A stretch of 64,000 nt of DNA, from positions 64,488 to 128,487 of the forward strand of contig JAGNKX010000007.1 in the NCBI GenBank assembly GCA_017999915.1. The letters run 5' to 3'. This DNA comes from Spirochaetota bacterium (GTDB taxonomy: Bacteria; Spirochaetota; UBA4802; UBA5550). Shown one piece after another: positions 36,747-63,591 of this stretch. A program made the position numbers and the translations under genes. The first letter of the stretch is position 1; every line of letters begins with the position of its first letter. The notes beneath the pieces were generated by a model. That model did no database searches, was not told where the DNA came from, and was given only the letters and a program-made list of their open reading frames with translations.

Positions 36747-37294
36747 AATGCCGCCACGATCTCCTCGATGTCGCGGGTGAGAAAGCCCTGTATCTTTTTT
36801 TCGACCGCAAGGACGAAGGACTTGTTCTCGGTGATCAGGGTGATGATGTGCTGGTTGATCCCGTAGCGCTTGACCAGGTCGTCGACGCGGTCGTCTATCG
36901 ACACGATGGTGTCATGCATGACACGCTTGTCCGCGTAGAAGACCAGCTCCCGCGCCTCCAGGTCTCCCTTGGGCTTGAAGCCCTCGAACACGACATGGGA
37001 ATCGACGATCTCCGCGATGGCGTCGTAGCCCAGCTCGCGCATGATCTCGCCGCCGATCAGGTCATGGCGCATCTCCTTGGTCTCGATGGTCCTGGTCTTG
37101 GCGATGTCGTGGAGGAGGGCGGCCGTCATTACCAGGCTGTCCTGTATGATGTCCGGGACCCTGAGGTGGGCCACCAGGGCCATGGCGACGTTCATCACCT
37201 GCTCGGAATGGCGCATGATGTTATCCCGCATGCCGTAGCGCCTCATGATCTCGTAGCATTCCTCCAGGGTGGGGACCGGTGCGTGGTTGTTCAT
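36740..37294 (-). CDS. HD-domain metal-dependent phosphohydrolase
   Basis: H...LLHDIAKT ... HD-type His/Asp spacing; 184 aa. Confidence 0.7.
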   Translation of the reverse strand: MNNHAPVPTLEECYEIMRRYGMRDNIMRHSEQVMNVAMALVAHLRVPDIIQDSLVMTAALLHDIAKTRTIETKEMRHDLIGGEIMRELGYDAIAEIVDSHVVFEGFKPKGDLEARELVFYADKRVMHDTIVSIDDRVDDLVKRYGINQHIITLITENKSFVLAVEKKIQGFLTRDIEEIVAALC

Positions 37295-37495
37295 TGGAAT
37301 AGCGACCCCCCCGTCCCCCTGAGGGGGCGTGAATTAAAAAAATTATTCATTATTACTATAATCTCAATGCTAAAATGAACTTATATTGTCGCACGTATAG
37401 TACATAAATCATTTGGTCAATACTATTATAAACACCTTCCCACATGCCCCCTACGGGGGACAGGGGGGGCATCAGGCCGGGGGGTGAGGCGGCGC

Positions 37496-38287
37496 TCATG
37501 GCGACGGAGCCTGCTCTGACCCCAGTGGCGCCAGGGTCAGCTCGTCCCCTATGGCCATCCCGTACTTCTCCGCGATGGATCTCTCGCGCAGGGTCAGCTC
37601 GATAAACCCGGAGCTCCCCCGTAACATGCCGCACTGCCCCTTGAAGAGGTCGCCGTAGGCGCGCACGCAGATCGATTTGATCCGGTATCGCTCTGAAGAG
37701 ACCGAATACAATGAGCAGGCCTCAAAGTCAATTGTATTTACCGGGAGAGACGTTATGGCATTGCCGAATTTATCGATATGGAGGATGAGGCAGGTCAGGG
37801 CGTTCCCCGATGCAGAGAACCGCGGGAAGTCACTCTGTATTACCGATACCGCCGGGGTCCCGAATTCTTCGGGCTTCGCTCCCCGGGCGAGACCGGCCGC
37901 GACCGGGGCGAAAACGTCCCTGCCGTGAAAGGTGCGGGAGGCCTTTTTGAACAGCGACATGTCGATGTGGTACACCGCGGTGATATCGGACATCACCGCG
38001 GAGATGACGCCGTTGTCGGCCATGACGAACCGGTACCGGCCGTCCGACGCAATGATCCCTTCGCGGCCGGTGCCCACGCCGGGATCGACGATGACGCAGA
38101 AGACTGTTCCCTCCGGGAAAAACCGGTACGACGAGTGCAGGATGAACTGGGCGTTCAGGATCGAATAAGATTGAACGGAGTGGCTTATGTCGATGATGTC
38201 GACGCCGGGGGACAGGCTTTTAATCACGCCCTTGACGACGCCGACAAAGTGGTCGGTGTATCCGAAATCCGTAATAAGAGCGACCAT
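37496..38287 (-). CDS. SAM hydroxide adenosyltransferase / SAM-dependent chlorinase-fluorinase family (DUF62)
   Basis: ALITDFGYTDHFVGVVKGVI, DISH, VDPGVGT, ADNGV, FHGRDVFAPVAA. Confidence 0.8.
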   Translation of the reverse strand: MVALITDFGYTDHFVGVVKGVIKSLSPGVDIIDISHSVQSYSILNAQFILHSSYRFFPEGTVFCVIVDPGVGTGREGIIASDGRYRFVMADNGVISAVMSDITAVYHIDMSLFKKASRTFHGRDVFAPVAAGLARGAKPEEFGTPAVSVIQSDFPRFSASGNALTCLILHIDKFGNAITSLPVNTIDFEACSLYSVSSERYRIKSICVRAYGDLFKGQCGMLRGSSGFIELTLRERSIAEKYGMAIGDELTLAPLGSEQAPSP

Positions 38288-39047: not shown

Positions 39048-39752
39048 TCAGAGCACGAAAATCGTCCCCAGGTCAACGGCACGGGATGTGCCGAGGGGGA
39101 CGATTTTTTTTCCCCGGCTCTCGATAAAATCCGCAATGGCGCCGTAATCGGGATGATGGGCCAGGGCGCCGGAGCAGAGCACCATGGCGTCACAGGGCCC
39201 GGTGGCGCCCCCGATAAACCCGTACCCGTACCCGGGCAAGTCGATGTGCCCCGGTACGATCTGGAGCGATACGAGACCCCTGGACAAAGCCGCCCTGTGT
39301 ATCGACACGTCGGCTGTGATGATGGATAAATCGTCGACAATGAGGGTGGAGCACCTGGCGTAGCCCTGGTTCACGGCCGCGGCTGCGATGTTTTTTGATA
39401 GAAGATACTCTTCAACAAGGGGGTCAGAGCCTACCGGATGTTTAAAGGCCCAGGGGCCCGCGCAGGCGATGTTATAGGGAACGTCGCCCGGGTATGCCTT
39501 TAGGAGCTTCGTTGAACAGATGGTCACTTCCGCGTATTGTTCCAATGCCGATACGAATGACAGGGAAATATCGGGGTGGCAGAAGACACGCTCCCCGTGA
39601 ACGAAAACCTGTATGTCCGGATGGCCGGCCAGGGGCGCATCGACCCGATCGGTTTTCGGAATCGGGATCGGCTCGATATCCATTTTCTTTAGATTGCCGA
39701 TGATTTCCCCGGACGCGTCAGGATTGATAATGGCGATTCGTTTCATGGGCAC
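39048..39752 (-). CDS. conserved hypothetical protein
   Basis: 234-aa ORF with coding-like composition and motifs GHPDIQ and GG.TG. I do not recognise the family with confidence. Confidence 0.5.
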   Translation of the reverse strand: MPMKRIAIINPDASGEIIGNLKKMDIEPIPIPKTDRVDAPLAGHPDIQVFVHGERVFCHPDISLSFVSALEQYAEVTICSTKLLKAYPGDVPYNIACAGPWAFKHPVGSDPLVEEYLLSKNIAAAAVNQGYARCSTLIVDDLSIITADVSIHRAALSRGLVSLQIVPGHIDLPGYGYGFIGGATGPCDAMVLCSGALAHHPDYGAIADFIESRGKKIVPLGTSRAVDLGTIFVL

Positions 39753-45138: not shown

Positions 45139-45495
45139 TCAGTTTTTTTCCTCCATGATGCAGGTGCCGTTGAAGATAGAGCCCGACTCTATGGTGAGCT
45201 CCGGGGCGACCAGGTCGCCGCTGGTCTTGCTTTTCTTGAACAGCTCGATCTTCCGCGACGCCTTTATCTTGCCGCTGAAAACGCCGCTCACGTTGACCTC
45301 GCTGGCCCTGACATCGGCGCTGACCTTGGCCTCGCGCCCCACGATGAGCTGGCCTTCGGTCTCGATCTTTCCCTCGAAGGTTCCCTTGATCTTCAACGAA
45401 TTCTTGAACTTGAGATTCCCCTTGAAGGCGATGTCGTCGGCGATGACCGTGTCTATTTTATTTTCGTCTTCCAGTATTTCCTTTGGTTCTGCCAT
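45139..45495 (-). CDS. bactofilin
   Basis: Repetitive beta-helix pattern: IAFKGNLKFKNSLKIKGTFEGKIETEGQLIVGREAKVSADVRASEVNVSGVFSGKIKA... Confidence 0.8.
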   Translation of the reverse strand: MAEPKEILEDENKIDTVIADDIAFKGNLKFKNSLKIKGTFEGKIETEGQLIVGREAKVSADVRASEVNVSGVFSGKIKASRKIELFKKSKTSGDLVAPELTIESGSIFNGTCIMEEKN

Positions 45496-45706
45496 TGATG
45501 TCTCCGTAACATGTAAATTGTTCTGATCGATGATCCCGGTTCAAGCCACCGGGATGATATGATAGTAAAAATAGAATACCGTGTATAAATTGTCAAACAG
45601 TATTATGGGGTATTCACCCATGGGTCCTCCGCGGTCATGGATGCAATTTAAATATTATCATTAAAATAATCTTGCAATATTTGCTGCCCGCCGGCAGTAG
45701 TAGAGC

Positions 45707-46054
45707 ATGGACGATTCGACGGAAACCATACTGAAACAGGCCGTGGAGCTGGGACGGCTCATTCGCGACACGGAGATATACCGCAATTACACCAGCCTGT
45801 CCGAGTCGCTCCTTGCCGATGCCGATTCAGCCAGGCTCTTCGATGAGTACGTGAATCTCGTCCGCACCATAAAGGAGCGCCAGGAGAGGGCGGATATCAT
45901 CGAAAAGTACGAGTTCGAAAACCTGGAGAGCCTGGGGCGCATTGTCTCCGGGAATGAGACCATCATGATGTTCCTGGAGGCGCAGAAAGAGTACCTGGAC
46001 CTGCTCACCAGGATCCAGGAGGAGCTGCAAAACAGCGATGATATTTCGGGCTGA
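45707..46054 (+). CDS. YlbF/YmcA-family protein
   Basis: 115-aa helical protein: A.ELGRLIRDTEIYRNY....SL..D..A..L.DEY. Confidence 0.6.
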   Translation: MDDSTETILKQAVELGRLIRDTEIYRNYTSLSESLLADADSARLFDEYVNLVRTIKERQERADIIEKYEFENLESLGRIVSGNETIMMFLEAQKEYLDLLTRIQEELQNSDDISG

Positions 46055-46336
46055 GTCCAATATGTCGCATTTCAAATATTTATCGACCCGGCCCCTTTAT
46101 TTCTTGACTCGCTGTTTTATATGCTTTTTATTATAAATAATATTGTAACTAATTCACTTGATTCTTGACTTAAGTAACCTGATTGATTATTTTTAAGAAC
46201 AAATCGGTCAAGGCTGTTGCCGGTCAAAATAGCGCGATGGGGATTCGCCCGGAACAATGGAGCCGGAACGGAGATTCCCCGGGGAATTATTTGCAAGCAA
46301 CACGCCATTATTTTAAAAAGGAAAAGAGTGAGGCAT

Positions 46337-46864
46337 ATGCAACCAAATCTTGATAATCTCAAGAAGAAGATCCAGGATAACCGTGATCTGATCGACAGGA
46401 TCACCGTGAAGCTGCCCGGATTCAAGGGATACGTCGAAAAGGCCGAAAGCTACGCCGCCGACAAGATCGTCAGGGAGCTGCTGGCCGACAGGATCCTCGG
46501 CTTCAAGAACGAGGTGAACGCCAAGATGGTCGAGATGGAGAAAAAGCAGGTGAGGGACTGCCTCGGCGATCTCGATTCACTGGCCATGAAGATGGAAACG
46601 GTCATCAGGAAGTGCCGGCACGCCGATTTCGGAAGGGCGGCCGCCCTGTCAAGCATGACCATATCAGAGGACGACAAGAACAGGCTCCTGGAATACGACT
46701 GGAGGCTTATCTCGGCCCTCGATGAACTGGATAAAAAGGTGAGCGAGCTGCGCGCCGCCGCGCCGGAAGCCGCTGGCGCCGCCATCGGCGGCATTGCCGA
46801 TACCCTGCGCGCCTTTGAAAAGAATTTCGACGAGCGAAAAAATGTACTACTGGAGGTAATCTAA
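46337..46864 (+). CDS. all-helical/coiled-coil protein, unknown family; first gene of the SPFH operon
   Basis: Start at internal ATG 46337 with AAAAGGAAAAGAGTGAGG upstream. Its TAA is directly abutted by the ATG of the next gene at 46865. Confidence 0.5.
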   Translation: MQPNLDNLKKKIQDNRDLIDRITVKLPGFKGYVEKAESYAADKIVRELLADRILGFKNEVNAKMVEMEKKQVRDCLGDLDSLAMKMETVIRKCRHADFGRAAALSSMTISEDDKNRLLEYDWRLISALDELDKKVSELRAAAPEAAGAAIGGIADTLRAFEKNFDERKNVLLEVI

Positions 46865-47992
46865 ATGGCATTATTGGATGTAGTCGAATGGAAAAATAAA
46901 CAGGGCGAGATAATCTACCGGTTCCCGGAGAACGCCATATCCATGGCCGCCCAGCTGATCGTCATGGAAAACCAGGAAGCGGTATTCTTCAGGGAAGGCC
47001 GCGCCCTTGACAGCCTCGGACCGGGCAGGCACACCCTGAAATCCGGAAACATTCCCATACTGGAAAAGCTCGTGAACCTTCCCTTCGGCGGCAAGTCGCC
47101 GTTCCCCGCCGAAGTCTATTTCGTAAACAAGACCGAGATCCCCAACCTGAAGTGGGGCACCAAGCAGCCCATCGACCTCCAGGACCCGGTCTACAACATC
47201 GCGGTGCCGATCCGCGCCTTCGGCAATTTTTCCATCAAGATCAAGGACACAAAGTCATTTCTCACCATGGCCATCGGCACCTGGCAGGCCTTCTCAACCG
47301 AAGCCGTTGAAACCACGCTCCGGGACCAGGTCATCCTGCCGAAGCTCTCCGACCTGATAGCGGAGTTCATGCTTAAGCAGAACGTCACCATCCTGAAGCT
47401 CGCGCAGTTCTACAACGAGATCGGCGTGTCCGGCAAGGCCAACATCCTCGACGATTTTGCGACCTACGGCCTGGAGCTGGTCCGCTTCGCAGTCGAATCG
47501 ATCAACGTGCCCCAGGAGGACGAGTCGGTCAAGCGCCTCAAGAAGGCGTTGGCGGACAAGGCGGAGATCGGCATCATGGGCCAGGACGACTACAAGATGA
47601 AGCGCACCTTCGACACCATGGAGAAGGCGGCGGGAAGCGACGGCATGTCGGGCGGCATGATGGGAGCCGGCATGGGCGTGGGCATGGGCCAGCAGATGGC
47701 CGGCATGATGGGCCAGGTGATGGGCGGATCGGCGCAGGGCGCCGGCGCTAAAATTGTCTGCCCGCACTGTAACGCCCAGAACGCGGCGGGAGCGAAATTC
47801 TGCTCCTCCTGCGGCAAGGAGATGGTCGTCGCGGCCATGACCTGTCCCAAGTGCAACGCCAAGATCCCGGCCAATTCCAAGTTCTGCCCCGAGTGCGGCG
47901 CTAACACGGCCGGCGGCGCCTGCACGAAGTGCGGCGCCAAGCTGCAGCCGGGGGCGAAGTTCTGTCCCGACTGCGGGGCGCAGCAGGGATAG
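46865..47992 (+). CDS. SPFH/Band-7 domain protein (YdjI/COG4260 type) with three C-terminal zinc ribbons
   Basis: N-terminal LDVVEW....EIIYRFPE......QLIV.E.Q.AVFFR.G. A Gly/Met-rich linker follows, then CPHC..11..CSSC, CPKC..11..CPEC and CTKC..11..CPDC. Confidence 0.8.
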   Translation: MALLDVVEWKNKQGEIIYRFPENAISMAAQLIVMENQEAVFFREGRALDSLGPGRHTLKSGNIPILEKLVNLPFGGKSPFPAEVYFVNKTEIPNLKWGTKQPIDLQDPVYNIAVPIRAFGNFSIKIKDTKSFLTMAIGTWQAFSTEAVETTLRDQVILPKLSDLIAEFMLKQNVTILKLAQFYNEIGVSGKANILDDFATYGLELVRFAVESINVPQEDESVKRLKKALADKAEIGIMGQDDYKMKRTFDTMEKAAGSDGMSGGMMGAGMGVGMGQQMAGMMGQVMGGSAQGAGAKIVCPHCNAQNAAGAKFCSSCGKEMVVAAMTCPKCNAKIPANSKFCPECGANTAGGACTKCGAKLQPGAKFCPDCGAQQG

Positions 47993-48003
47993 GCTGAAAC
48001 GCC

Positions 48004-48603
48004 ATGGCTTCAACGCAATGCCCCTCATGCGGGGCTCCGGTTGAGATAAAGAACAGGTTCAGCAAGGTCCTGGTCTGCGGCTACTGCGGTTCGCACCTCA
48101 AGGTTGCCGGCGACGGGTTCGACGCCACGGGAAAGCATCCCAGGCTGGCGGAGTTCCCGTCGATCTTCCAGGTCGGGACCAGGGGAACCATCCTCGGGAA
48201 GCCCTTCACGGCCCTGGGAAGGATGCGCTACAACTATCCCGGGGGGCACTTCGATGAGTGGTTCCTGGAATATGACGGCGGCACCGCCTGGTTCACCGAG
48301 GACGAGGGGACCTACGCCCTCTTCACTGAGAATGAGGACGCCATCGAATATCCCGATATTACAAGTGTGCGGGCCGGCCAGAACGTGATGATCGGCTCGA
48401 AAAAGGTCATGGTCAAGGAAAAGGGCACCGCCAAAGTGGCCGGCGCGGAGGGGGAGCTCTCCTTTTACGTCGAGCCGGGCACGAAGGTCACATACATGGA
48501 CGGCGTATCCGAGGGGAAGAAGATCTCCATTGAAGCGACGGAGGATGAGATAGAGCTCTTCACCGGGAGGCCTCTCCTGGCCAGGGACATTGTAAAATCT
48601 TGA
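48004..48603 (+). CDS. Zn-ribbon + DUF4178 domain protein
   Basis: CPSCGAP...CGYCGS, then GTILGKPFTALGRMRYNYPGGHFDEWFLEYDGGTAWFTEDEG. Confidence 0.7.
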   Translation: MASTQCPSCGAPVEIKNRFSKVLVCGYCGSHLKVAGDGFDATGKHPRLAEFPSIFQVGTRGTILGKPFTALGRMRYNYPGGHFDEWFLEYDGGTAWFTEDEGTYALFTENEDAIEYPDITSVRAGQNVMIGSKKVMVKEKGTAKVAGAEGELSFYVEPGTKVTYMDGVSEGKKISIEATEDEIELFTGRPLLARDIVKS

Positions 48604-48628
48604 ACGTTATAGGGGGAATGAGTATTCC

Positions 48629-50029
48629 ATGGGAACCGATAACCAGGAATTGAAAGCCCTGAAATGCTCCAAGTGCGGCGGCGCCCTTGTGAAAAGCCGC
48701 CGCTCGGAGTATGACGACGAGGAAGAAGAAAACGTCAGCATCCCCATTGGCAAGTGCTCTTCATGCGGCCAGGAATACGACCAGAAAACCGAAGAATACT
48801 ACGGTCTCTTCGCCGATGATCTTACCGCGGACAAGGATAATTCTGTATTCAAACTGGGCAAGAAGGGGACGCTGAAAGGGGTCGAATACGAGATAGTCGG
48901 CCGGATCCGTTACCAGGACGAGGATGAATGGGAAAAAGACACCTGGGACGAGTGGTTCGCCGTCGCTGCCGACGGCACCTACCATTATTTCGTCGAGGAG
49001 GAAGGGGAGGTTCATTCCTATGAGGATTACACTCCCCAGTCCATCGACCTGGAGTCCGACCCTTCAAGCATCGAGTTTGACGGCAAGAAGATATCGAAAG
49101 ACGAGGCCTACGTGGGGCGCATCGTCTACGCCGAGGGAGAGCTTCCCTGGAAGCCCGAGATCGGCGAGCCCGCCGTCATGTACGACTTCAAGAAGGACGG
49201 CGCGAAGTTCACCATCGAGCAGTCCGAGGGAGAAGTGTCCATCACGAAGGGCGAAAAGCTCTCCTACAATGATGTCGTTGCGGCCTTCGGCGGCGAAGAG
49301 CACAAGAAACTATTCGATGAAACGGTCACAAAGCGCAAGAACTACAAGCTGAAAGCGGCCCTCTATGCCGCTTGCTCGGCTGCGGCCTTTGCCCTGGCCA
49401 TCGTCAACTGCCTCTCCTCGGCGCCCGTGGACGGCGTCATGAAATCAAGGCTCGACCTGGCCGGCAACGTGCCGATTACCGAGAACGGCCAGACCATGTA
49501 CCAGAGCGAGGTGCTCTACGGCCCCTTCGAGCTTAAGAAGGGCGACAGCCTTTACAATGCCCGGGTCTACGTCGATCCGGCGGTGCAGAAGTTCAACCTG
49601 GAATGGCAGTCGTTCCGGTTCCTGCTGGTGCCGGAAAACCGGCTCCTGAAGGCGGTCAACCACCAGATGACCCCCGCCGCGCTGAAGGACCTCTTTGACG
49701 AGGTGGACGCCATCAGGGAGCCGGTGGAATGCTACACCTTCAGCGGGGATTTCTGGGACGAGGAGGGCTCCGACGACGAAGGGTACTGGCACGAGAGCGA
49801 CCTCTCCGTGGACGACGATTTCGTCCTGGAAAAGGCCGGAAGGTATTACGCGTTCCTTGAGCTAACCAGCCAGAAGCCACGGGCCACCGCTTCCATCGGG
49901 CTTTCCCTTGAGCGTGTGAAGAGTTACCGGTATTATATTATCATAATGGTCATTCTCGCGGGCCTTGCCTTTTTCAACCGGGCTAGGGCGAAGACCTATA
50001 ACGCGATGCCCTTCAGTGTGGCTGAGTAG
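48629..50029 (+). CDS. Zn-ribbon + DUF4178 domain protein with C-terminal extension and TM segments
   Basis: CSKCGG...CSSCG, then GTLKGVEYEIVGRIRYQDEDEWEKDTWDEWFAVAADGTYHYFVEEEG. TM segments are AALYAACSAAAFALAIV and YYIIIMVILAGLAFF. Confidence 0.7.
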   Translation: MGTDNQELKALKCSKCGGALVKSRRSEYDDEEEENVSIPIGKCSSCGQEYDQKTEEYYGLFADDLTADKDNSVFKLGKKGTLKGVEYEIVGRIRYQDEDEWEKDTWDEWFAVAADGTYHYFVEEEGEVHSYEDYTPQSIDLESDPSSIEFDGKKISKDEAYVGRIVYAEGELPWKPEIGEPAVMYDFKKDGAKFTIEQSEGEVSITKGEKLSYNDVVAAFGGEEHKKLFDETVTKRKNYKLKAALYAACSAAAFALAIVNCLSSAPVDGVMKSRLDLAGNVPITENGQTMYQSEVLYGPFELKKGDSLYNARVYVDPAVQKFNLEWQSFRFLLVPENRLLKAVNHQMTPAALKDLFDEVDAIREPVECYTFSGDFWDEEGSDDEGYWHESDLSVDDDFVLEKAGRYYAFLELTSQKPRATASIGLSLERVKSYRYYIIIMVILAGLAFFNRARAKTYNAMPFSVAE

Positions 50030-50047
50030 GCGGGAGGTTATAAGACG

Positions 50048-50233
50048 ATGATACGGAGCATACTGATCATGGCGCTGCTGATGGGGGGCGGCTTTGCCGT
50101 ATCCAACTTCAATATGGGATATTCGACGGCGGGCCAGAAATACATCTCCAAGCACCGCGAACAGCGGAAATCCCTTCGGCCGGGATACTATTACGGCCGG
50201 CCCGGCTACGGCGGGTTCAGGGGCGGCAAATAA
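50048..50233 (+). CDS. small membrane protein with a Gly/Tyr/Arg-rich tail
   Basis: GGGAGG SD, one TM (ILIMALLMGGGFAV) and the tail RPGYYYGRPGYGGFRGGK. It sits within the operon. Confidence 0.45.
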   Translation: MIRSILIMALLMGGGFAVSNFNMGYSTAGQKYISKHREQRKSLRPGYYYGRPGYGGFRGGK

Positions 50234-50281
50234 CAAAGTCTATCATTAATCTGCTATATCTATCAGGAGGTAAACGCTACT

Positions 50282-50572
50282 ATGGATTGGGGAAGCTTGC
50301 TGCACGGCATACTGGACACTGCCATTTACAGCCTTGTGGGCATTATCATGATGGGCATCGGGATAGGACTGGTCATCCTGATATCGCCCTTTTCCGTCAA
50401 GAAGGAGATCGAAGACGACCAGAATATGGCCCTGGGCCTTATCATGGGAGCGATTATCATCGGCATTTCCATCATTATTGCCGGCGTGCTCATGGCGCCC
50501 GGCGGCGATTACATGAAGAAGAAGATCGGCTCAACCCCTGATGTGAAAGTCGAAGAAAAAGCCGTCAAGTAG
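50282..50572 (+). CDS. DUF350 (YjfL-family) membrane protein
   Basis: AGGAGG SD. Two-to-three TM helices with E..DDQN.A.G...G..I. Confidence 0.7.
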   Translation: MDWGSLLHGILDTAIYSLVGIIMMGIGIGLVILISPFSVKKEIEDDQNMALGLIMGAIIIGISIIIAGVLMAPGGDYMKKKIGSTPDVKVEEKAVK

Positions 50573-50581
50573 AGCCGGCCT

Positions 50582-52111
50582 TTGAAAAACGAATTGAGAC
50601 GGTTCGAACAGAGAATACTGTTATTCTCTGTTTTTTTTCTGTCCCTGTGCGGGATAACCTATGAGCTCGTGCTGGGCTCCCTGGCGACCTATCTCCTGGG
50701 CAACCCGGTGCAGCAGTATTCCATCACCATAGGCTTTTTCCTCAGCTCCATGGGCCTCGGCTCATACCTGTCCCGGTACCTGACGAAAAATATATTAAAG
50801 AATTTCATCATGATTGAGGTGGCCCTCGGCTTCGTGGGCGGCCTTTCGGTCCTGGTCCTCAGCTATCTCTTTTCCTTTTCCGCATCCTATTACATGCTCC
50901 ATATCTTTTTCCTGGTCCTCATCGGAACCCTCGTGGGCCTGGAAATACCGATCGTGACGCGGATCCTCAGGAAATATGGGGCCTTGAAGGACATCCTGTC
51001 CAATGTCCTTTCCCTGGATTACATCGGCGGCCTGGCGGGTTCGCTCCTGTTCCCGCTCCTCCTGTTTCCCTTCCTGGGGAGGATGCTCACCAGCATCATC
51101 ATCGGCGCCCTCAACATAGGTGTCGCGATGATCATCATCGTCAAGATAGACTACGAGAACAAGCGGAAAAGCGACTTCGTCATCCCGATCATTATCATGA
51201 TCATCCTGGCGGCCCTGGCCGCTTCTTCGGACCAGATCAACACCATTCTGCAGAAACGGCTCTACTATGATGACATCGTTTTTTCGAAGCGGTCCCATTA
51301 CCAGGAGATCGTGCTGACGCGGAACGACGAGGATTTCCGCCTCTACCTGGACGGCTCCCTCCAGTTTTCATCCGTGGACGAGTACCGCTACCACGAGATG
51401 CTGGTGTTCCCGCCCCTGTCCCTCAACAGGGCCCCGGACAAGCGGGTCCTTGTCCTCGGCGGGGGCGACGGCCTGGCCGTCAGGGAGATCATAAAATGCG
51501 GAGACGTGGCCGCCGTTACCCTGGTGGAGCTCGATCCCGCCATGATCGACCTGGCGAAAAAGAATTCCTCGCTGAAGAGACTCAACGGGAATTCCCTGCT
51601 GGACCCCCGGGTGACCGTCGTGGTGGGGGACGCCTACGCCTATTTGATTGGAAATAAAAAAAAGTATGACGTGATCATCGCCGATTTTCCCGATCCCCAC
51701 GACGAGACGATCACCAAGCTCTACACGGTGGAATTCTACTCCCTCCTGCGTCGCTCCCTCGCCCGGGGCGGGGTGTTCGTGACGCAGTCGACGTCGCCGC
51801 TCTTCGCGCGGGATGCCTTCTGGTGCATCCACAATACAATGCAAAAGGTCTTTTCCTCGGTCGTCGCGTACCACGTGTACGTGCCGTCCTTCGGGGACTG
51901 GGGCTTCAACATGGCCTGCGACGGCGTCTGCGACGCCGCCATGGCGGCGGAGGTGACTCCCGGCCTCAAATATTATTCCCCCGAAACCTTCGGGCAGTCG
52001 CTTCATTTCCCCCGGGACGCCGCGGTTTCCCGGACGGAGATCAACACCTTCAACAGGCCGGTGCTCTACAGCTATTACCTGAAGGGGTGGAAATACTACA
52101 TGGAGATGTGA
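50582..52111 (+). CDS. polyamine aminopropyltransferase (spermidine/spermine synthase-like) fused to an N-terminal multi-TM domain
   Basis: About 7 TM helices, then VLVLGGGDGLAVREI, LVELDP, DVIIADFPDP, GG.FVTQS. The apparent TTG start is uncertain. Confidence 0.8.
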   Translation: MKNELRRFEQRILLFSVFFLSLCGITYELVLGSLATYLLGNPVQQYSITIGFFLSSMGLGSYLSRYLTKNILKNFIMIEVALGFVGGLSVLVLSYLFSFSASYYMLHIFFLVLIGTLVGLEIPIVTRILRKYGALKDILSNVLSLDYIGGLAGSLLFPLLLFPFLGRMLTSIIIGALNIGVAMIIIVKIDYENKRKSDFVIPIIIMIILAALAASSDQINTILQKRLYYDDIVFSKRSHYQEIVLTRNDEDFRLYLDGSLQFSSVDEYRYHEMLVFPPLSLNRAPDKRVLVLGGGDGLAVREIIKCGDVAAVTLVELDPAMIDLAKKNSSLKRLNGNSLLDPRVTVVVGDAYAYLIGNKKKYDVIIADFPDPHDETITKLYTVEFYSLLRRSLARGGVFVTQSTSPLFARDAFWCIHNTMQKVFSSVVAYHVYVPSFGDWGFNMACDGVCDAAMAAEVTPGLKYYSPETFGQSLHFPRDAAVSRTEINTFNRPVLYSYYLKGWKYYMEM

Positions 52112-52117
52112 CGGGAC

Positions 52118-53029
52118 ATGAAGAAAAGGGCCGAGATGAATTTTGACCTGAAGCAGCTGCGTTCCTTCCTGGAGGTCCTGGCCGAGAACAGCTTCACCAG
52201 GGCTTCGCGAAAGCTGAAAGTAGGACAGGCCACCATCAGCCACCATATCATCCAGCTTGAAAAGGAGCTGGGCGTGAAGCTCATCAACCGCACGGCCCGC
52301 GACGTTTCCGTGACCGAGGAAGGGAAGGTGTTCCAGGCCTTCTGCGAGAAGCTCTTCAAGAACATGGAAGCGGTCTTGTCGGACCTTGACCGCGGCGCCA
52401 CTGCCGTGATCACGCGTATCGCAGCGAGCACCATACCGTCCGCGTACATCCTGCCGAAAATACTGGCGGCCGTGAAAAAGGAGTTTCCCGGCGTCATCTA
52501 CCGACTCCAGGTCACGGACAGCAGGGAGGCTGTGGAGATGGTGAAGGATGGAACCGCCGATGTCGGCATTGTGGGGAAGGAGTACCGCCATCCGGGACTG
52601 TCCTATACCCCGATCTGCGCCGATGAGATCGTACTGGTGGGCCCGAAGGGCTCCCCCTCGGAAATCAGCGTCGAGGATATCGTCCGGATGCCCCTGATCA
52701 TCCGCGAGGCCGGGTCCGGCACCAGGAAGAGCTGCGAGGAGGCCCTGGGAAGGCGCGGCATAACGCCTTCGGCGCTCCAGGTCGTGCTGGAGACTTCGTC
52801 GACGGAAAGCATAAAGGAATCGATCGCCGCCGGGCTGGGGATGTCATTCCTGTCGCGCCTGGCCGTGGAGCAGGAAAAGAAGTCAAAATCGCTGGTTGTG
52901 GTCGGGGTGAAGGGACTCGTTATCCGGCGGTCCTTTTATTTCGTCCGTTCGGGAAGCAAACAGCTGCACCGTCCGGCGCAGCTGCTTTATGATTCACTTG
53001 TTGAATTCGGGAAAACCCTTGGTCGATAA
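52118..53029 (+). CDS. LysR-family transcriptional regulator
   Basis: LRSFLEVLAENSFTRASRKLKVGQATISHHIIQLEKELGVKLINR. It starts 6 nt after the preceding gene. Confidence 0.85.
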   Translation: MKKRAEMNFDLKQLRSFLEVLAENSFTRASRKLKVGQATISHHIIQLEKELGVKLINRTARDVSVTEEGKVFQAFCEKLFKNMEAVLSDLDRGATAVITRIAASTIPSAYILPKILAAVKKEFPGVIYRLQVTDSREAVEMVKDGTADVGIVGKEYRHPGLSYTPICADEIVLVGPKGSPSEISVEDIVRMPLIIREAGSGTRKSCEEALGRRGITPSALQVVLETSSTESIKESIAAGLGMSFLSRLAVEQEKKSKSLVVVGVKGLVIRRSFYFVRSGSKQLHRPAQLLYDSLVEFGKTLGR

Positions 53030-59199: not shown

Positions 59200-62100
59200 C
59201 TAATTGTTCTGGAACCCGAGATTCCTGATCATTACACCGATGTCGATATGCGGATCATTCATATCAGCTATTGCGTTCAACATAACCGAAAGGTCGTCCC
59301 AGAGCGGGGAGTTGGGATCGCTTACAATGGACCAGCTCATGAAACCGTCCAGATCCTGGATTACATTTTTCATGGAATACGGCGTCGTAATATTAGTAAC
59401 AATGTAATGTACGATGCTGTCCTCGTCGTTAAGAAGGATTTGAACGTTTCTGAGAAGACGCTCGTATTTCTCACCGGTCCCGCCCGTTGTTTTCATGACA
59501 TCATGGATCTGCGGTATATACGTAAGGAGCTTTACCAGTTGATCAAATGAATTGGTCTTTCCCGGGCCATAGTCATATCCATGGTAGTGCCAGCCTGAAG
59601 AATCATGCCTGGCGAGAAGCTTGCCGGTCGTGTACAGGAGCCCCTGGCATTCATCCTCCGTCAGCTGCTGCGCTAAAAAAGCATTTATGATATTCACCAG
59701 GTTTTGTCTGACATCCCGGGTCCCCCCCATGAAGCTCGCCAGTAGATCGTACGATTCTTCGAAGTTCGACCAATTATCGCAAGTCGGCCAGTTATTGACG
59801 GTGCGAAACGCGCCTTCGTAACCCATATAATCCTCCAGATTAACATCTTCCGCCCGTGGGTTGAACATCCAGGCGTGCCGTGCGAAATCCACCGTGGCGA
59901 AATATCCATTTGTTATGGCTTCGCTCCTGTTGAACTTTATGGCTGTCATGAGCTGTTCGAGTCCTAAGGCGATATTTTCACGCTCGGTCGTATAGGGTTC
60001 ACTCCCCAGGAGCTGCAGCAGGCCCAGCAGCCTCGTGGCCAGGCCGCTGTTGTCCGTCATCATGGGGAAAACACCGTCATAACCGTTGATGCTGTTCCCG
60101 GCGAGAACGCTCAGCAGGGTGCGCAGCGAGTCCCGCGGTATGTAATTGTTGATGGTGGGCGTATAGCCCTTGTCAGAGACATTGGGCCTGAAATAGATAT
60201 AGGTATCGCCGGTTTCATCTTTTACCCGCGGGACCCACCGATCATTGGGTGAATTAAAACGCCGGAGCATGGGTTTGCCCAGTGGTATCAGAACCCCTTC
60301 AAGGATGTCGGCGAGGGGATACTTGTGAGGCGATGGTGATGTATGGTTATAATTGTATCCCGATGTTGATGGCACATACTTGGTCCAGTCACGAAGGGTG
60401 CCGGCCAGGGCGGACAGGGCCGGGGCAAGCCTGTTCCTGTTCCCCCATGCGGTGTCCCATTTCGACGATCTGTCGTCTGATAGTATGGCGCTGGCGTTAT
60501 TGATCAAAAAAGCCAGACGCGCCGCAGGCTCGATATTTCTGCCGATAGCGTCAGGGAGGACATGCCCTGATCCAAGAACTTTTTCAAACAGGAATTCGGC
60601 ATCTATATATACTATGCCAAGATTCAATAAATTCACCCGGTGGCAGAAGACCATGATACGGCCGTCGCCCGGTACATTTGAATCGCCGTAATCGGGTGTA
60701 TTCGCGTAATTGGGGTTATTCGCGGCGGCGGGTATTCCCTCGGTCCCAAGCTTGACCCAGCGGCCGTTGGCGCTTCCTTTTTTCGCGTTGGCAAGGCCCA
60801 CGGCGCCGTTGGCCTCGATAAGGATAAATGCCCCGGCTGATTGAATATTCAACAAATTCACAAACATGGGAATAATGAAGGAGAATTTTTTCTCGAACAG
60901 GAACCAGTGTATGTTTCTGAAGATCGCTTCTTCCTGGGTGGTGCATTCACGGATGGAAACGCCCGATCCGGGAGACGTTTCCTGGTTCTGTCCGATCCTT
61001 TCGTGAAATTTAAAGGTAGTGGCGTTTGTGGAAGCACCCGAGATGTCTATCAAATTGTATTTATCAGCATCGGCGGCTCCATTGACATAGGGTAATCCCG
61101 CATCATTCATCGGTGGAAGATTATAATAAGGAGTTGATCCGTGCTTGATGATGTAATGATCCGATACGACTGTATCCTTGTATCGATTGGCCCTCTGGCC
61201 ATTGGCGTCATCGGGGTCAGCCATGTCATCGCCGATACCGGTCTGTGTTGAATTGGGGTACGCATATTCCCACGATGCCGGGCTAGTCGAAGGTTTATAG
61301 ACATAGGCATAGACCTCGCCGTTTGGCTTGTAATAGACATTGACAGTCTTCCTTCCGCTCACCGGCAGCGTATAGCTGGCAGTGGCCGGATGATCCGTGT
61401 CATTGACATGGGTTGTCGAATAATAGGGCCCCTGGCCGTCCCATGCGACCCGGGCGATCCAGCTCATGAGGAACTGCGCGGTGTTCAGCACTCCTTTCCC
61501 ATCCGCGACCCTGGGCCAATAGGTCCGGTAATCATTTCTGTAGTTATTCGCCGCAAGCGTTGCGGCATTGGTTTCTGTCTCATTGCTGTTAACGGTTACC
61601 GCGGTATCCCCGCCATTGGGAATGCCGGCATCACCGGCGCAATTGGAAGGCAGCAGCAGCAGGGGAGGTGAGTCGTAACCAATGTAAAATTTATGATATC
61701 CGCTGTCGGCATCACCGGTCGTGAATGAGGATGAGCTCCGTGAAATGTGATTTCCCTGCTCGGTCCTCTTTGCCAGGGCCAGAGCGTATGAATTCATTGT
61801 ACTCGGAAGCGGGATACCAAGCAAAGCCAGTGTGTTTTTGATTGTAGTGCACATGCCCGGAGTGATGCTGTCTATAAGGGCAAAGAGGGCATCATTCGTG
61901 GACACGGAAAACATGCAGTCATTTATGGTCATCACGCCTTTGGTGGCGATGCCATGGCCATAATTGAAATTGGTGTAGTCGCCTTCTCCGGAGGCGGACC
62001 CGACCCGGGTCAGGAAGCCGAAGTGATAGGCGGATCCGATCGTATAGACGAGATGGTCCAGGTAGGACATCTGCGACCAGGCGGCATCGCTCGTCCGGTC

Positions 62101-63591
62101 CAGCAGCCTGCCGTTGTACTGAATGGTCCTCTTGAGGGTCGGCTCTATTGCGTTGACGCTGTCGGAATAGTCTATGCCCGCGGTTTTCAATCTGGCCAAT
62201 GCAACCATCAGCCCCTCGATGAGCGACTGCCGGTGTGCATCGGTTATGGAATAATCGGCCCCGCCGGTCCCGTCATTGCGAATAAAGAGCTTCACCAGCG
62301 TCGGCAGCATATCCCTCAGCGTTTCCTTGAAGGAGGCGTTCACATACCCATTGCTTGTGGTGGGATTGTGATAATCCGCGCTGGTGTCATACCGGCTGGC
62401 GTTGCCTGTCTCGTCATGGGCGAAGTAATACGATATGTTGCTGACGGCGTTTTCAATCCTGGCCTTCGCCGAAGCGTCTCTGGTGAGAAGGGCCGGCAGG
62501 TCCGTAAGGATCATATTGTTGATGGCGGTCCTCACTGTTTCGTCCTTCGCGGCAATGGAATTGAGGCCGTACAGGAGCTTGACCAGGCCCTTCACCGAGT
62601 TGCCCAGATCCGTATTGGTGGAATAAGCGCCGTTGTTCGCGTTGTCGCGGTTCGCGGGAGGGATATTGCCGCTGTTCACCCACATAGGATAGTCACAGGC
62701 CATCGTGAGGTTTCCGAGCAGCGTCGTCAGCCTGGATATATCGTATTCCACCTTTGTCGATCTGGCCCTATCGTTCCAGTAATTTGTTGTTGCCCCCACC
62801 TGGTTGTCGGTAAGGCAGCGGTCGTCCGATGCAATTGCCAGTGAATTGCCGGTCTGGTTATCGGCGTCATATAAGGTTACTTTCAATCCAATTGGCACTT
62901 TTACTGATGAGATGGCGCCGCTATGGGCCCCCAGATCAGAAGAGGAGTAGGATCCCACCGGAAGGTCGATGTATTTTACAGTGGACGATTCGTCGTACAT
63001 GGCGTTATCATAAAGGCGGACCTTCATCATGTTGCATATATCTGTTTCCAGTCCAGCGCGATCGGTATGGGAGTCCAGCTTGGTGTTGACCAGGTAATTT
63101 ACCGCCTGTGCGGCAATGGCCAGGACATCGCCGCTGATCTCGGTATTTTCTGTTATCCCGTCCAGGGCGGCATAGAATTGGGCCAGCCGGTCAATGGATC
63201 TGTCAGTCGAGTCATAATAGCCGCAGTCGGCGCCGGTGGGGCTATCGGCATAATGATGCGGAGTTGTATCCAGTATGATTTTAATCATACTGTTTATGTC
63301 CTTAATCATGGGCACCAGGAACGGCGCTTCGACCAGATTGACGGTATCCCGAAGAAATAGCGGAATCTCAAAGCCCTCAAGAATCATTTCTCCCAGGCCA
63401 TCGTTGAGTCTCTGGGTGTCCAGGCTGTCAACCCCGCTCTGGAGGGAGGGGAAATTTTGGAAAAGATCGAAAAGACTATATGGCGGCTTTTGTTCATTTG
63501 TTTGAAATGATTCCATCTGGCTTTTTGAGCAGCCGGTATTTATCAGTGATAAAAAAAAGAGAGTGATCATCAGGGAAAGAAACTTGTTCAT
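59200..63591 (-). CDS. 1463-aa lipoprotein of unknown function with an N-proximal beta/gamma-crystallin-like module
   Basis: Lipobox INTGC. Uninterrupted 4.4-kb ORF with coding-like composition. Residues ~190-283 (62743-63024): KVRLYDNAMYDESS...AISSVKVPIGLKVTLYDADNQTGNS...WNDRARS.KV. Confidence 0.65.
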   Translation of the reverse strand: MNKFLSLMITLFFLSLINTGCSKSQMESFQTNEQKPPYSLFDLFQNFPSLQSGVDSLDTQRLNDGLGEMILEGFEIPLFLRDTVNLVEAPFLVPMIKDINSMIKIILDTTPHHYADSPTGADCGYYDSTDRSIDRLAQFYAALDGITENTEISGDVLAIAAQAVNYLVNTKLDSHTDRAGLETDICNMMKVRLYDNAMYDESSTVKYIDLPVGSYSSSDLGAHSGAISSVKVPIGLKVTLYDADNQTGNSLAIASDDRCLTDNQVGATTNYWNDRARSTKVEYDISRLTTLLGNLTMACDYPMWVNSGNIPPANRDNANNGAYSTNTDLGNSVKGLVKLLYGLNSIAAKDETVRTAINNMILTDLPALLTRDASAKARIENAVSNISYYFAHDETGNASRYDTSADYHNPTTSNGYVNASFKETLRDMLPTLVKLFIRNDGTGGADYSITDAHRQSLIEGLMVALARLKTAGIDYSDSVNAIEPTLKRTIQYNGRLLDRTSDAAWSQMSYLDHLVYTIGSAYHFGFLTRVGSASGEGDYTNFNYGHGIATKGVMTINDCMFSVSTNDALFALIDSITPGMCTTIKNTLALLGIPLPSTMNSYALALAKRTEQGNHISRSSSSFTTGDADSGYHKFYIGYDSPPLLLLPSNCAGDAGIPNGGDTAVTVNSNETETNAATLAANNYRNDYRTYWPRVADGKGVLNTAQFLMSWIARVAWDGQGPYYSTTHVNDTDHPATASYTLPVSGRKTVNVYYKPNGEVYAYVYKPSTSPASWEYAYPNSTQTGIGDDMADPDDANGQRANRYKDTVVSDHYIIKHGSTPYYNLPPMNDAGLPYVNGAADADKYNLIDISGASTNATTFKFHERIGQNQETSPGSGVSIRECTTQEEAIFRNIHWFLFEKKFSFIIPMFVNLLNIQSAGAFILIEANGAVGLANAKKGSANGRWVKLGTEGIPAAANNPNYANTPDYGDSNVPGDGRIMVFCHRVNLLNLGIVYIDAEFLFEKVLGSGHVLPDAIGRNIEPAARLAFLINNASAILSDDRSSKWDTAWGNRNRLAPALSALAGTLRDWTKYVPSTSGYNYNHTSPSPHKYPLADILEGVLIPLGKPMLRRFNSPNDRWVPRVKDETGDTYIYFRPNVSDKGYTPTINNYIPRDSLRTLLSVLAGNSINGYDGVFPMMTDNSGLATRLLGLLQLLGSEPYTTERENIALGLEQLMTAIKFNRSEAITNGYFATVDFARHAWMFNPRAEDVNLEDYMGYEGAFRTVNNWPTCDNWSNFEESYDLLASFMGGTRDVRQNLVNIINAFLAQQLTEDECQGLLYTTGKLLARHDSSGWHYHGYDYGPGKTNSFDQLVKLLTYIPQIHDVMKTTGGTGEKYERLLRNVQILLNDEDSIVHYIVTNITTPYSMKNVIQDLDGFMSWSIVSDPNSPLWDDLSVMLNAIADMNDPHIDIGVMIRNLGFQNN

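Follow-up and report, generated by a model that had tools for sequence, protein, structure and literature searches.

Seven tightly spaced plus-strand genes, here called g1 to g7, occupy positions 46337-52111 of a 64,000-nucleotide (nt) stretch of DNA from a Spirochaetota bacterium (contig JAGNKX010000007.1 of assembly GCA_017999915.1; the whole stretch that was analysed is hereafter the window), and a gene for a LysR-type regulator follows them. Overall, we think it on balance probable that g1-g7 are the spirochaete-lineage form of an envelope module that dispenses with PspA and combines a band-7 (SPFH) protein, DUF4178 proteins, a DUF350 protein and a membrane aminopropyltransferase, and that this module works through a scaffold coupled to the aminopropylation of something other than putrescine. 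Relative to the operon class described by Ravi et al. 2024 (mSystems, PMC11237479), the cassette is new in four ways: a first gene, g1, has been added; zinc (Zn) ribbons stand in place of a SHOCT domain on the SPFH protein; the DUF4178 component is split between two proteins; and there is no gene for S-adenosylmethionine decarboxylase (AdoMetDC).

The eight genes lie where the first-pass annotation of this DNA had placed them, and the table of open reading frames (ORFs) agrees with its spacing: from g1 to the LysR gene the intergenic gaps are, in order, 0, 11, 25, 18, 48, 9 and 6 nt (Table 1). Pfam and NCBIfam scans, from which our domain calls are taken, likewise uphold its band-7, Zn-ribbon, double DUF4178, DUF350, spermine synthase and LysR assignments. 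A longer reading frame for g1 is possible from a TTG codon at 46217; the ATG at 46337 was taken as the start because all homologs begin MQP and run to about 175 amino acids (aa). The only large gap of the cassette is the 282-nt intergenic stretch 5' of g1. Rfam gave no riboswitch or other RNA element across the whole window, and terminator-like sites within the cassette are no more numerous than expected by chance. Transmembrane (TM) segments are borne by g4-g7 and by none of g1-g3.

Table 1. Positions of the cassette genes, the LysR gene and a promoter-like site in the window
Feature	Position	Strand	Basis or remark
Promoter-like site TTGACT-17-TATTTT	46165..46193	+	about 145 nt 5' of g1; consensus match only
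g1, helical-bundle protein, 175 aa	46337..46864	+	homolog family, AlphaFold2 model; abuts g2 (gap 0)
g2, SPFH protein (Band_7_1), 375 aa	46865..47992	+	Pfam Band_7_1 2e-49
g3, Zn ribbon + DUF4178, 199 aa	48004..48603	+	Pfam DUF4178 1.7e-13
g4, membrane-anchored Zn ribbon + DUF4178, 466 aa	48629..50029	+	Pfam DUF4178 7.5e-16; AlphaFold2 model
g5, small tail protein, 61 aa	50048..50233	+	position and architecture; without family match
g6, half-size DUF350 (YjfL family) membrane protein, 96 aa	50282..50572	+	Pfam DUF350 2.6e-13
g7, TM-aminopropyltransferase, 509 aa, TTG start	50582..52111	+	Spermine_synth 6.6e-38; NF002956
LysR-type regulator, 303 aa	52118..53029	+	HTH_1 + LysR_substrate; NF040786

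A scan with a g1 profile, one genome per species, returned 46 loci, all of them labelled as Spirochaetota or 'Leptospirales' metagenome-assembled genomes (MAGs), save one contig binned as Christensenellaceae. When all window genes were placed on these loci by tblastn, the order g1-g7 was identical in 41 of the 41 distinct Spirochaetota loci long enough to cover it; six further loci, cut by contig ends, fall outside this count. Because none of the 41 departs from this order of the seven genes, the arrangement is beyond chance, and g1-g7 are one conserved unit; together with the recurrence of its core in other phyla described below, this shows the genes to be co-conserved across taxa. Identity to the window ranges over the loci from 38 to 86% for g1, from 62 to 95% for g2 and from 62 to 90% for g7, which makes g1 the fastest-evolving member of the cassette, and it lies directly 5' of g2 in all loci. 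Most loci also have flanks in common, with electron transfer flavoprotein (ETF), outer membrane protein, bactofilin and YlbF genes upstream and rpmB downstream; in L035 and L038 the cassette is present and the usual flanks of the clade are absent.

The regulator gene behaves differently. It was found only in the window and in ten loci of the nearest subclade (L003, L005-L013), where g1 identity is at least 61%, and it is absent from about 30 other loci, in which rpmB (encoding L28) directly follows g7; it is gone where g1 identity is 52% or less. Since it is confined to the nearest subclade and rpmB takes its place elsewhere, the LysR gene is an accessory, subclade-specific 3' insertion and not a conserved member of the cassette, contrary to its initial treatment as part of the system. 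The protein moreover passes the cutoff of a family from an unrelated context, NF040786 'selenium metabolism-associated LysR' (272.9 bits against a cutoff of 250), and no selenium-related gene was present among the window ORFs scanned.

The initial description of the operon as lacking PspA stands. In this genome, a Pfam scan of 20 flanking ORFs, confined to the part of the window beyond the initial 16 kb, found no PspA (PspA_IM30) and no polyamine gene; tblastn with PspA and YjfJ queries gave no match in the window or in 61 loci; and no PspA was found across 1.0 Mb of related loci. The same neighbourhood also bears on the idea of an anti-phage or abortive-infection defence built on an SPFH protein and Zn-ribbon sensors, to which we assign next to no probability. 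Proteins of the SPFH and Zn-ribbon kinds are known from some defence contexts, and PADLOC returned a weak match of g7 to mad2, but that sole match runs through a generic S-adenosylmethionine (SAM)-binding fold (residues 280-429), PADLOC assigned no defence system and matched none of the other six proteins meaningfully, and across the clade the cassette sits in a stable housekeeping neighbourhood (ETF, prolyl-tRNA synthetase, L28) rather than in a variable island.

Searching outside the phylum, tblastn with g3 against plasmids and chromids matched 143 records, 134 of them from Ralstonia (megaplasmids), three from Burkholderia and six from others; the records are unannotated, so their ORFs were called by hand and scanned with Pfam. 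A DUF4178 gene and a gene for a TM-fused SpeE-like enzyme (TM-SpeE) occur together in eight clusters outside the phylum: L050 from Burkholderia, L049 from Ralstonia, and the metagenomic L051, L052, L053, L058, L060 and L062. Band_7_1 is present in five of the eight, AdoMet_dc in three and PspA, by tblastn, in none, and a DUF350 gene is found in L050, L051, L052, L053, L058, L060 and L062 (L049 stands outside the DUF350 count). In Burkholderia stagnalis (L050) a DUF350 protein, a Band_7_1-SHOCT protein, a fused double Zn ribbon-DUF4178 protein with TM segments, a 47-aa peptide and AdoMet_dc are encoded in that order; divergently alongside lie the genes for an amine oxidase and for a TM-SpeE that shares 40% identity with g7. 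In gene order, L051 encodes a 155-aa protein of no assigned family, Band_7_1-SHOCT, two DUF4178 proteins, a 78-aa protein, DUF350 and SpeE; L053 encodes Band_7_1-SHOCT, DUF4178, a 364-aa and a 78-aa protein, DUF350, SpeE and AdoMet_dc; and L060 encodes Band_7_1-SHOCT, DUF4178, a 432-aa protein, a small peptide, DUF350 and SpeE. The shorter clusters L052 and L058 have a multi-module DUF4178 protein, a protein of 68-69 aa, DUF350 and SpeE, and L062 has DUF4178, DUF350 and SpeE. Thus the core parts, a Zn ribbon-DUF4178 protein, a small tail protein, DUF350 and TM-SpeE, often with Band_7_1, co-occur across phyla, and the features specific to the spirochaetes are g1, the triple Zn-ribbon tail of the SPFH protein and the absence of AdoMetDC.

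These cassettes belong beside a known operon class. Ravi et al. 2024 (PMC11237479) describe PspA-linked operons that encode a 7TM-spermine synthase, YjfL (DUF350), a Ctha_1186 lipoprotein and DUF4178, for example Shewanella oneidensis SO_3765-3766, as well as variants with a band-7 protein in place of the CesT/Tir-PspA dyad; for the enzyme they propose 'aminopropylation of other substrates', and the supplement gives 'LipoSIG+Ctha_1186+Low-comp' before YjfL and Spermine_synth in Shewanella. The spirochaete cassette shares with this class the TM-fused SpeE-like enzyme (g7), DUF350 and DUF4178; directly before DUF350 it has a small protein, g5, that resembles the low-complexity-tail protein of the class in position and architecture; and it shares with the band-7 variant the absence of the dyad and the presence of a Band_7_1 protein (g2). 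The Burkholderia cluster L050 is itself such a PspA-free band-7 variant, seen here with AdoMet_dc and an amine oxidase. The union of SPFH and polyamine arms without PspA, which had at first looked novel, was therefore already on record there. At the same time, the spirochaete cassette departs from the class in several respects: it has no PspA, CesT/Tir, AdoMetDC, polyamine oxidase or ribbon-helix-helix regulator; its SPFH protein ends in three Zn ribbons, where that of the class has two TM segments and SHOCT; its DUF4178 is divided between the soluble g3 and the bitopic g4, with its predicted extracytoplasmic beta-sandwich; it has the extra, clade-restricted g1; and its tail protein is only 61 aa long and has no lipobox.

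The added gene, g1, had been suspected of encoding a PspA- or ESCRT-III-like analogue, and this suspicion did not survive. The protein has 137 homologs of about 175 aa, without a Pfam domain and, where named, nearly all from Spirochaetota MAGs, and it matches the Leptospira NCBIfam family LIMLP_15305 (NF047596) over its full length at E 2.8e-13, under the family cutoff; the single paper to name the locus tags of that family says nothing of their function. An AlphaFold2 model from 33 sequences (predicted local distance difference test score (pLDDT) 80.5, predicted TM-score (pTM) 0.76) is a compact bundle of helices 5-25, 38-69, 76-95, 111-140 and 143-174. Foldseek against the PDB gave no significant match (best E 0.18), and PspA, Vipp1 and ESCRT-III entries were absent from the top 50; against the viral library BFVD, a phage PspA/IM30 protein appeared only at E 1.1 with a root-mean-square deviation of 28 Å. 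Sequence and profile searches of the PDB came back empty, Pfam on the 33 family members at E<=10 showed no PspA_IM30, Snf7, DUF2170 or DUF2491, and hhalign of the g1 profile against E. coli PspA, YjfJ, YjfI and YjfK gave probabilities of at most 0.2% (0.2% for PspA and YjfJ). With Pfam, the PDB profile search, Foldseek and hhalign all negative, the identities PspA, ESCRT-III, YjfI and YjfK are rejected for g1. Two insignificant hints are a V-SNARE N-terminus in 7 of the 33 members (best E 0.0026) and IncA-like four-helix bundles at a template-modelling score of about 0.45. We conclude that g1 is a predicted cytosolic helical bundle of a Spirochaetota-restricted family, distantly related to LIMLP_15305 and probably translationally coupled to g2. 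As for a g1-like first gene in other phyla, the 155-aa gene that precedes Band_7_1 in L051 proved unrelated (hhalign 0.3%), and L053 and L060 have no such gene.

These results bear directly on the proposal that the cassette is a membrane-damage sensing and repair module, in which g1 would replace PspA as an ESCRT-III-like protein and g7 would make polyamine locally for the membrane. The cassette does belong to the same neighbourhood family as the PspA/YjfJ operons, its first product is all-helical and tightly coupled to the SPFH gene, and the catalytic motifs of g7 are intact. Nonetheless, we consider this proposal quite improbable: g1 is a compact bundle of helices of about 20-30 residues with no long hairpin, the structural, domain and profile comparisons just given are uniformly negative for PspA and ESCRT-III, equivalent cassettes in other phyla do without g1, and fusion-type enzymes are reported (PMC12803844) not to produce spermidine or spermine.

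The second gene gives the cassette its most recognizable component. The Band_7_1 domain of g2 is followed, after a Gly/Met-rich linker, by three stretches matching Zn_Ribbon_1, in which the spacing is CxxC-x10-CxxC and not the eleven residues first counted. All 44 of the 44 clade orthologs whose tail is complete carry three ribbons, no more and no fewer, whereas no g2 relative outside the clade has them, SHOCT being borne there instead. Hydropathy shows no TM segment in g2, nor in g1 or g3, and by its sequence g2 is a predicted cytosolic SPFH protein of the YdjI/SamI type; neither g2 nor g4 has a solved relative detectable by sequence. One ortholog, of 335 aa (L048:159-1166), lacks all three Zn ribbons in a locus where g1 and g3-g7 are present; it may reflect a frameshift, an assembly artefact or a natural variant.

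In Bacillus subtilis, YdjG/H, which are membrane proteins, recruit the cytosolic SPFH protein YdjI/SamI; work in cells has characterised YdjI/SamI, and its stress-sensor function persists without PspA (Scholz et al. 2021, PMC8581546; Baur et al. 2026, bioRxiv 10.64898/2026.02.06.704340). The likeness to pspA-ydjGHI (samGHI) is one of architecture: a Band_7_1 SPFH protein with one or more C-terminal Zn ribbons stands beside Zn-ribbon membrane proteins. The differences are equally clear, for the spirochaete cassette has no PspA, none of its proteins matches TPM_phosphatase, the domain of YdjH, and its Zn-ribbon partners bear DUF4178, where YdjG has two Zn ribbons, a YpeB/NTF2-like domain and a TM segment. 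The B. subtilis module, for its part, has no arm of aminopropyltransferase, DUF350 and tail peptide.

The DUF4178 proteins are built on one plan at two levels of elaboration. The shorter, g3, is a soluble single module with an N-terminal CxxC…CxxC ribbon before the DUF4178 domain, and a search with it of a library clustered at 50% returned 1,705 clusters, either single modules of about 200 aa or two- and three-module proteins of 450-1000 aa. In g4 the residues C13, C16, C43 and C46 are invariant, and the AlphaFold2 model (pLDDT 88.4) runs from a Zn ribbon through a beta-rich DUF4178 domain and a long TM helix (223-262) to a beta-sandwich (274-429) and a final TM helix (433-456). The extension and TM anchors originally ascribed to g4 are thus borne out, the model giving two TM helices that flank a beta-rich domain, and this beta-sandwich is predicted to be extracytoplasmic. 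Foldseek with the g4/DUF4178 model returned generic jelly-roll or CBM-like matches at low template-modelling scores, from which no functional inference was drawn.

At the 3' end of the cassette stand the genes for g6 and g7, 9 nt apart. The DUF350 protein g6 covers positions 2-67 of the 133-position model, about half, with two hydrophobic segments, and shows weak similarity to E. coli YjfL in BLASTP. The Spermine_synth domain of g7 comprises residues 268-444, C-terminal to a polytopic membrane domain that had been given about seven TM helices; averaged over the alignment, hydropathy shows six strong segments, and the seventh, at about 48-64, is weaker. The protein scores 592.6 bits against NF002956 (cutoff 472) and 57.5 against NF037959 'fused MFS/spermidine synthase' (cutoff 40). 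Its closest solved relatives, the thermospermine synthase 6bq2 (5.8e-40) and 1uir from T. thermophilus, are both active aminopropyltransferases, and its motifs align with those of 6bq2, 1uir and 7xif. Over 42 orthologs, Q241, YHE270-272, GGGDG 293-297 (G294 in 41 of 42), D318, D368 and D371-P372 are invariant and D350 is kept in 41. The catalytic residues are therefore present on alignment, and g7 is a predicted aminopropyltransferase with intact catalytic motifs.

What such an enzyme would make is another matter. According to PMC12803844, which cites Li et al. 2019 (Li, Kurihara, Kim, Liang and Michael, Biochem J 476:2579), bacterial fusions of a membrane protein with an aminopropyltransferase-like domain have been found experimentally not to be involved in spermidine or spermine synthesis. 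Those fusions resemble g7 in having an N-terminal polytopic membrane domain and a C-terminal aminopropyltransferase-like domain. The genes for such fusions reportedly cluster with DUF350, and in many genomes with AdoMetDC, and neither the full-length fusion nor the isolated domain is reported to complement an E. coli speE mutant. For AdoMetDC, tblastn with two AdoMet_dc queries found no gene, either in the window or up to 10 kb from any spirochaete cassette. The 'locally synthesised polyamine' of the first-pass annotation is doubtful, because AdoMetDC is absent nearby and the fusion homologs are reported not to serve polyamine synthesis, and it is on this literature (PMC12803844) that we base a putative non-polyamine role for g7.

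Ordinary polyamine biosynthesis, with g7 as a membrane-anchored spermidine or thermospermine synthase and its neighbours as passengers held in place by clade synteny, would account for the score of g7 above the NCBIfam 'polyamine aminopropyltransferase' equivalog cutoff, for its best solved relative being an active thermospermine synthase and for the synteny of the flanking housekeeping genes. We allow it little probability, since the same partners recur beside TM-SpeE in Betaproteobacteria and on unrelated metagenomic contigs with different flanks, the literature on the fusion proteins (PMC12803844) runs contrary to it, and an AdoMetDC gene is lacking nearby.

The remaining member of the cassette, g5, has an N-terminal hydrophobic helix, a G-Y/W-G/S motif, a basic stretch and a Gly/Tyr/Ser/Arg-rich tail; it gave no Pfam or NCBIfam match and has no lipobox. 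Its most constant feature is its end, which is a C-terminal Lys in all 45 distinct positional equivalents and Gly-Lys in 44 of them. The 45 span Spirochaetota, Burkholderia and unrelated contigs, and a Lys-ending tail is present in Burkholderia (…GSHK), in Ralstonia (…GGHK) and in L051-L053, L058 and L060, and in L062, which has no separate small gene, the 917-aa DUF4178 protein itself ends …SSGSSGSRFGGGK. All eight SpeE-containing clusters outside the clade bear such a tail, in seven as a separate gene placed directly before DUF350 and SpeE, and in L062 fused to the DUF4178 protein. Among 111 long DUF4178 representatives, eight carry a fused g5-type tail; those of L054 and L063 have no SpeE gene within 8-9 kb, and for this reason the tail tracks DUF4178 more tightly than it tracks SpeE. 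Fusion of the tail to long DUF350 proteins was also checked and does not occur.

In its position and its architecture g5 matches the 'signal + low-complexity tail' protein found before DUF350 in published cassettes; in these two respects it fits the Ctha_1186/DUF1190 slot, but it has neither a lipobox nor a sequence-family match. The invariant terminal Lys of the g5 family and its fusion to DUF4178 are new here, going unmentioned in the available text of Ravi et al. 2024. Lipoprotein and Cys-pair versions of the tail protein occur in other taxa and suggest that the tail is exported, while the strongly basic character of the g5 tail would favour a cytoplasmic location. A further observation concerns the long multi-module DUF4178 proteins, 66 of whose 111 representatives end in D or E, typically with a TM helix, 'FE..RRW' and poly-Asp (P0122-P0270, for example P0122, P0126, P0134 and P0144); its basic counterpart is the Gly-Lys tail, which belongs to the small protein encoded next door or, in 8 of the 111, is fused. 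In both of the acidic-tailed contexts looked at, L052 and L058, a separate K-ending peptide is present.

The E. coli operon yjfIJKLMC, and with it tolC-ygiBC, offers a parallel to this end of the cassette, and the links to yjf-type and YdjI-type systems that were proposed at the outset are real. Both have a DUF350 protein (YjfL), an exported protein with a G/S/Y/R tail (YjfM/YgiB, DUF1190) and, at the 3' end, an enzyme of polyamine type. That enzyme differs, for YjfC is an ATP-grasp peptide-spermidine ligase and g7 is of the aminopropyltransferase type; the yjf operon has PspA (YjfJ), YjfI and YjfK and lacks SPFH and DUF4178; and the YjfM tail ends in Gly-Gly, that of g5 in Gly-Lys. Peptide-spermidine ligase activity has been shown for YgiC and YjfC. 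The statement that no component of such neighbourhoods has a demonstrated biochemical role is in this respect partly outdated, given this ligase activity and the characterisation of YdjI/SamI in cells. In the E. coli K-12 locus (L056, 4410133-4414191), RefSeq names YjfC 'peptide--spermidine ligase', and the neighbouring YjfM has a lipobox, a Cys-rich middle and a G/S/Y/R tail, which raises the question of whether YjfM is the peptide substrate of YjfC.

We regard the g5 tail as a candidate acceptor or partner of g7. In the stronger version of this idea, g7 would aminopropylate g5, or the equivalent tail fused to DUF4178, either at the C-terminal Lys or in the Gly/Tyr/Arg tail. The product would be a polycationic peptide, anchored in the membrane or exported, and the SPFH and DUF4178 proteins would serve as scaffold or chaperone. 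The invariant Lys end of the g5-type proteins, with Ralstonia, L058 and L060 fitting too, and the presence of a tail in eight of eight SpeE clusters outside the clade speak for it, as do the failure of fusion-type enzymes to use putrescine, reported in PMC12803844, and the sister operon of E. coli, where the peptide-spermidine ligase YjfC stands beside the similarly tailed YjfM. Nonetheless, we hold it unlikely: the fused tails of L054 and L063 are found without SpeE within 8-9 kb, the membrane side of both the tail and the catalytic domain is ambiguous from hydropathy, and the evidence fits a mere binding partner as well as a substrate. That the cassette is, more specifically, a machine for the aminopropylation of a ribosomal peptide or protein tail, in which g7 decorates the Gly-Lys or Gly/Tyr/Arg tail of g5 to yield a genetically encoded polycationic envelope factor, seems to us distinctly unlikely. 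The modification may take place on the outer face of the membrane, if a topology of seven TM helices with the C-terminus outside is right and the membrane domain delivers the donor.

Regardless of whether the tail is a substrate, the general workings of the PspA-free scaffold and aminopropylation module that we favour can be sketched. The cytosolic SPFH protein g2 and its clade-specific partner g1 would assemble a scaffold beneath the membrane, to which the Zn ribbon-DUF4178 proteins, the soluble g3 and the membrane-spanning g4 with its outside beta-sandwich, would tether it, by analogy with the recruitment of YdjI/SamI by YdjG/H in B. subtilis. The scaffold would then organise or regulate a triad of the g5 tail peptide, the DUF350 protein g6 and the TM-aminopropyltransferase g7, and g7, with decarboxylated SAM as donor, would aminopropylate a membrane-proximal acceptor that is not putrescine and would not produce bulk polyamine. 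The output would be an altered charge or stability of the envelope, reached independently of PspA.

Several points weigh against this reading. The first is the source of the donor, there being no AdoMetDC gene in or near any of the spirochaete cassettes; this also sets the cassette apart from the fusions of Li et al., and the subfamily tested there may not be that of g7. The second is topology. With seven TM helices in g7, every K/R-rich loop falls on one side, the N-terminus is inside and the C-terminus outside, and the catalytic domain lies outside the cytoplasm; with six, the catalytic domain is cytoplasmic, but two K/R-rich loops break the positive-inside rule. Hydropathy and the positive-inside rule thus favour the seven-helix form with a putative extracytoplasmic catalytic domain, which is hard to reconcile with the donor because decarboxylated SAM is made in the cytoplasm. 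Conservation inside the spirochaete clade is in part plain vertical inheritance, since most flanking genes are syntenic too, and the contexts outside the spirochaetes are a small, non-random sample of 13 loci. The likeness of g4 to YdjG would be one of common architecture, a Zn ribbon and a TM segment, and the cassette as a whole is known here from genes and predicted models alone.

The surroundings of the cassette are varied. Directly 5' of it, at 45139-46054, are a bactofilin gene on the minus strand and a YlbF/YmcA-family gene on the plus strand, both of them syntenic with the cassette across most of the clade; YlbF shares the strand of g1 and ends 282 nt before it. The flanking ORFs scanned include genes for isoamylase, a radical SAM enzyme, a SAM hydroxide adenosyltransferase, AraC, acyl-CoA synthetases and an epimerase. 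Adjacent minus-strand genes at 35109-38287, for a radical SAM protein (545 aa), an HD-domain protein (184 aa) and a DUF62-type SAM hydroxide adenosyltransferase (263 aa), resemble a small SAM-metabolism cluster, whose link to the cassette is not evident. A DUF6873 protein (9.3e-57) is encoded at 39048-39752 on the minus strand, between a small secreted-looking ORF and prolyl-tRNA synthetase. Two further minus-strand genes, one of 1463 aa with a lipoprotein-like N-terminus (59200-63591) and one of 570 aa with an N-terminal TM segment (25978-27690), match nothing in Pfam at E<=1e-6. Third-position GC of the ORFs is about 0.5-0.6 at 1-25772 and 0.7-0.86 at 25978-64000, and the first, low part encodes an asparagine synthase, an AMP-binding enzyme and a 1071-aa DUF5018/DUF6242 surface-type protein, which suggests that the first 25 kb or so of the window, distinct in composition, are a surface or polysaccharide region that may have been acquired.

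Membrane-fused aminopropyltransferases, DUF350 and DUF4178 are widespread, and the enzyme reportedly makes no polyamine. In this context, the spirochaete cassette adds a further phylum to those in which the module has an SPFH protein but no PspA, and it removes the idea that a hidden PspA is encoded by the first gene. The Gly-Lys tail, whether free or fused to DUF4178, is a simple and testable clue to a candidate partner or substrate. Were aminopropylation of the tail true, it would be the long-sought non-polyamine substrate of the widespread bacterial and fungal fusions of membrane proteins with aminopropyltransferases, and if the clue holds, an orphan enzyme family would be linked to a new protein modification at the bacterial envelope.

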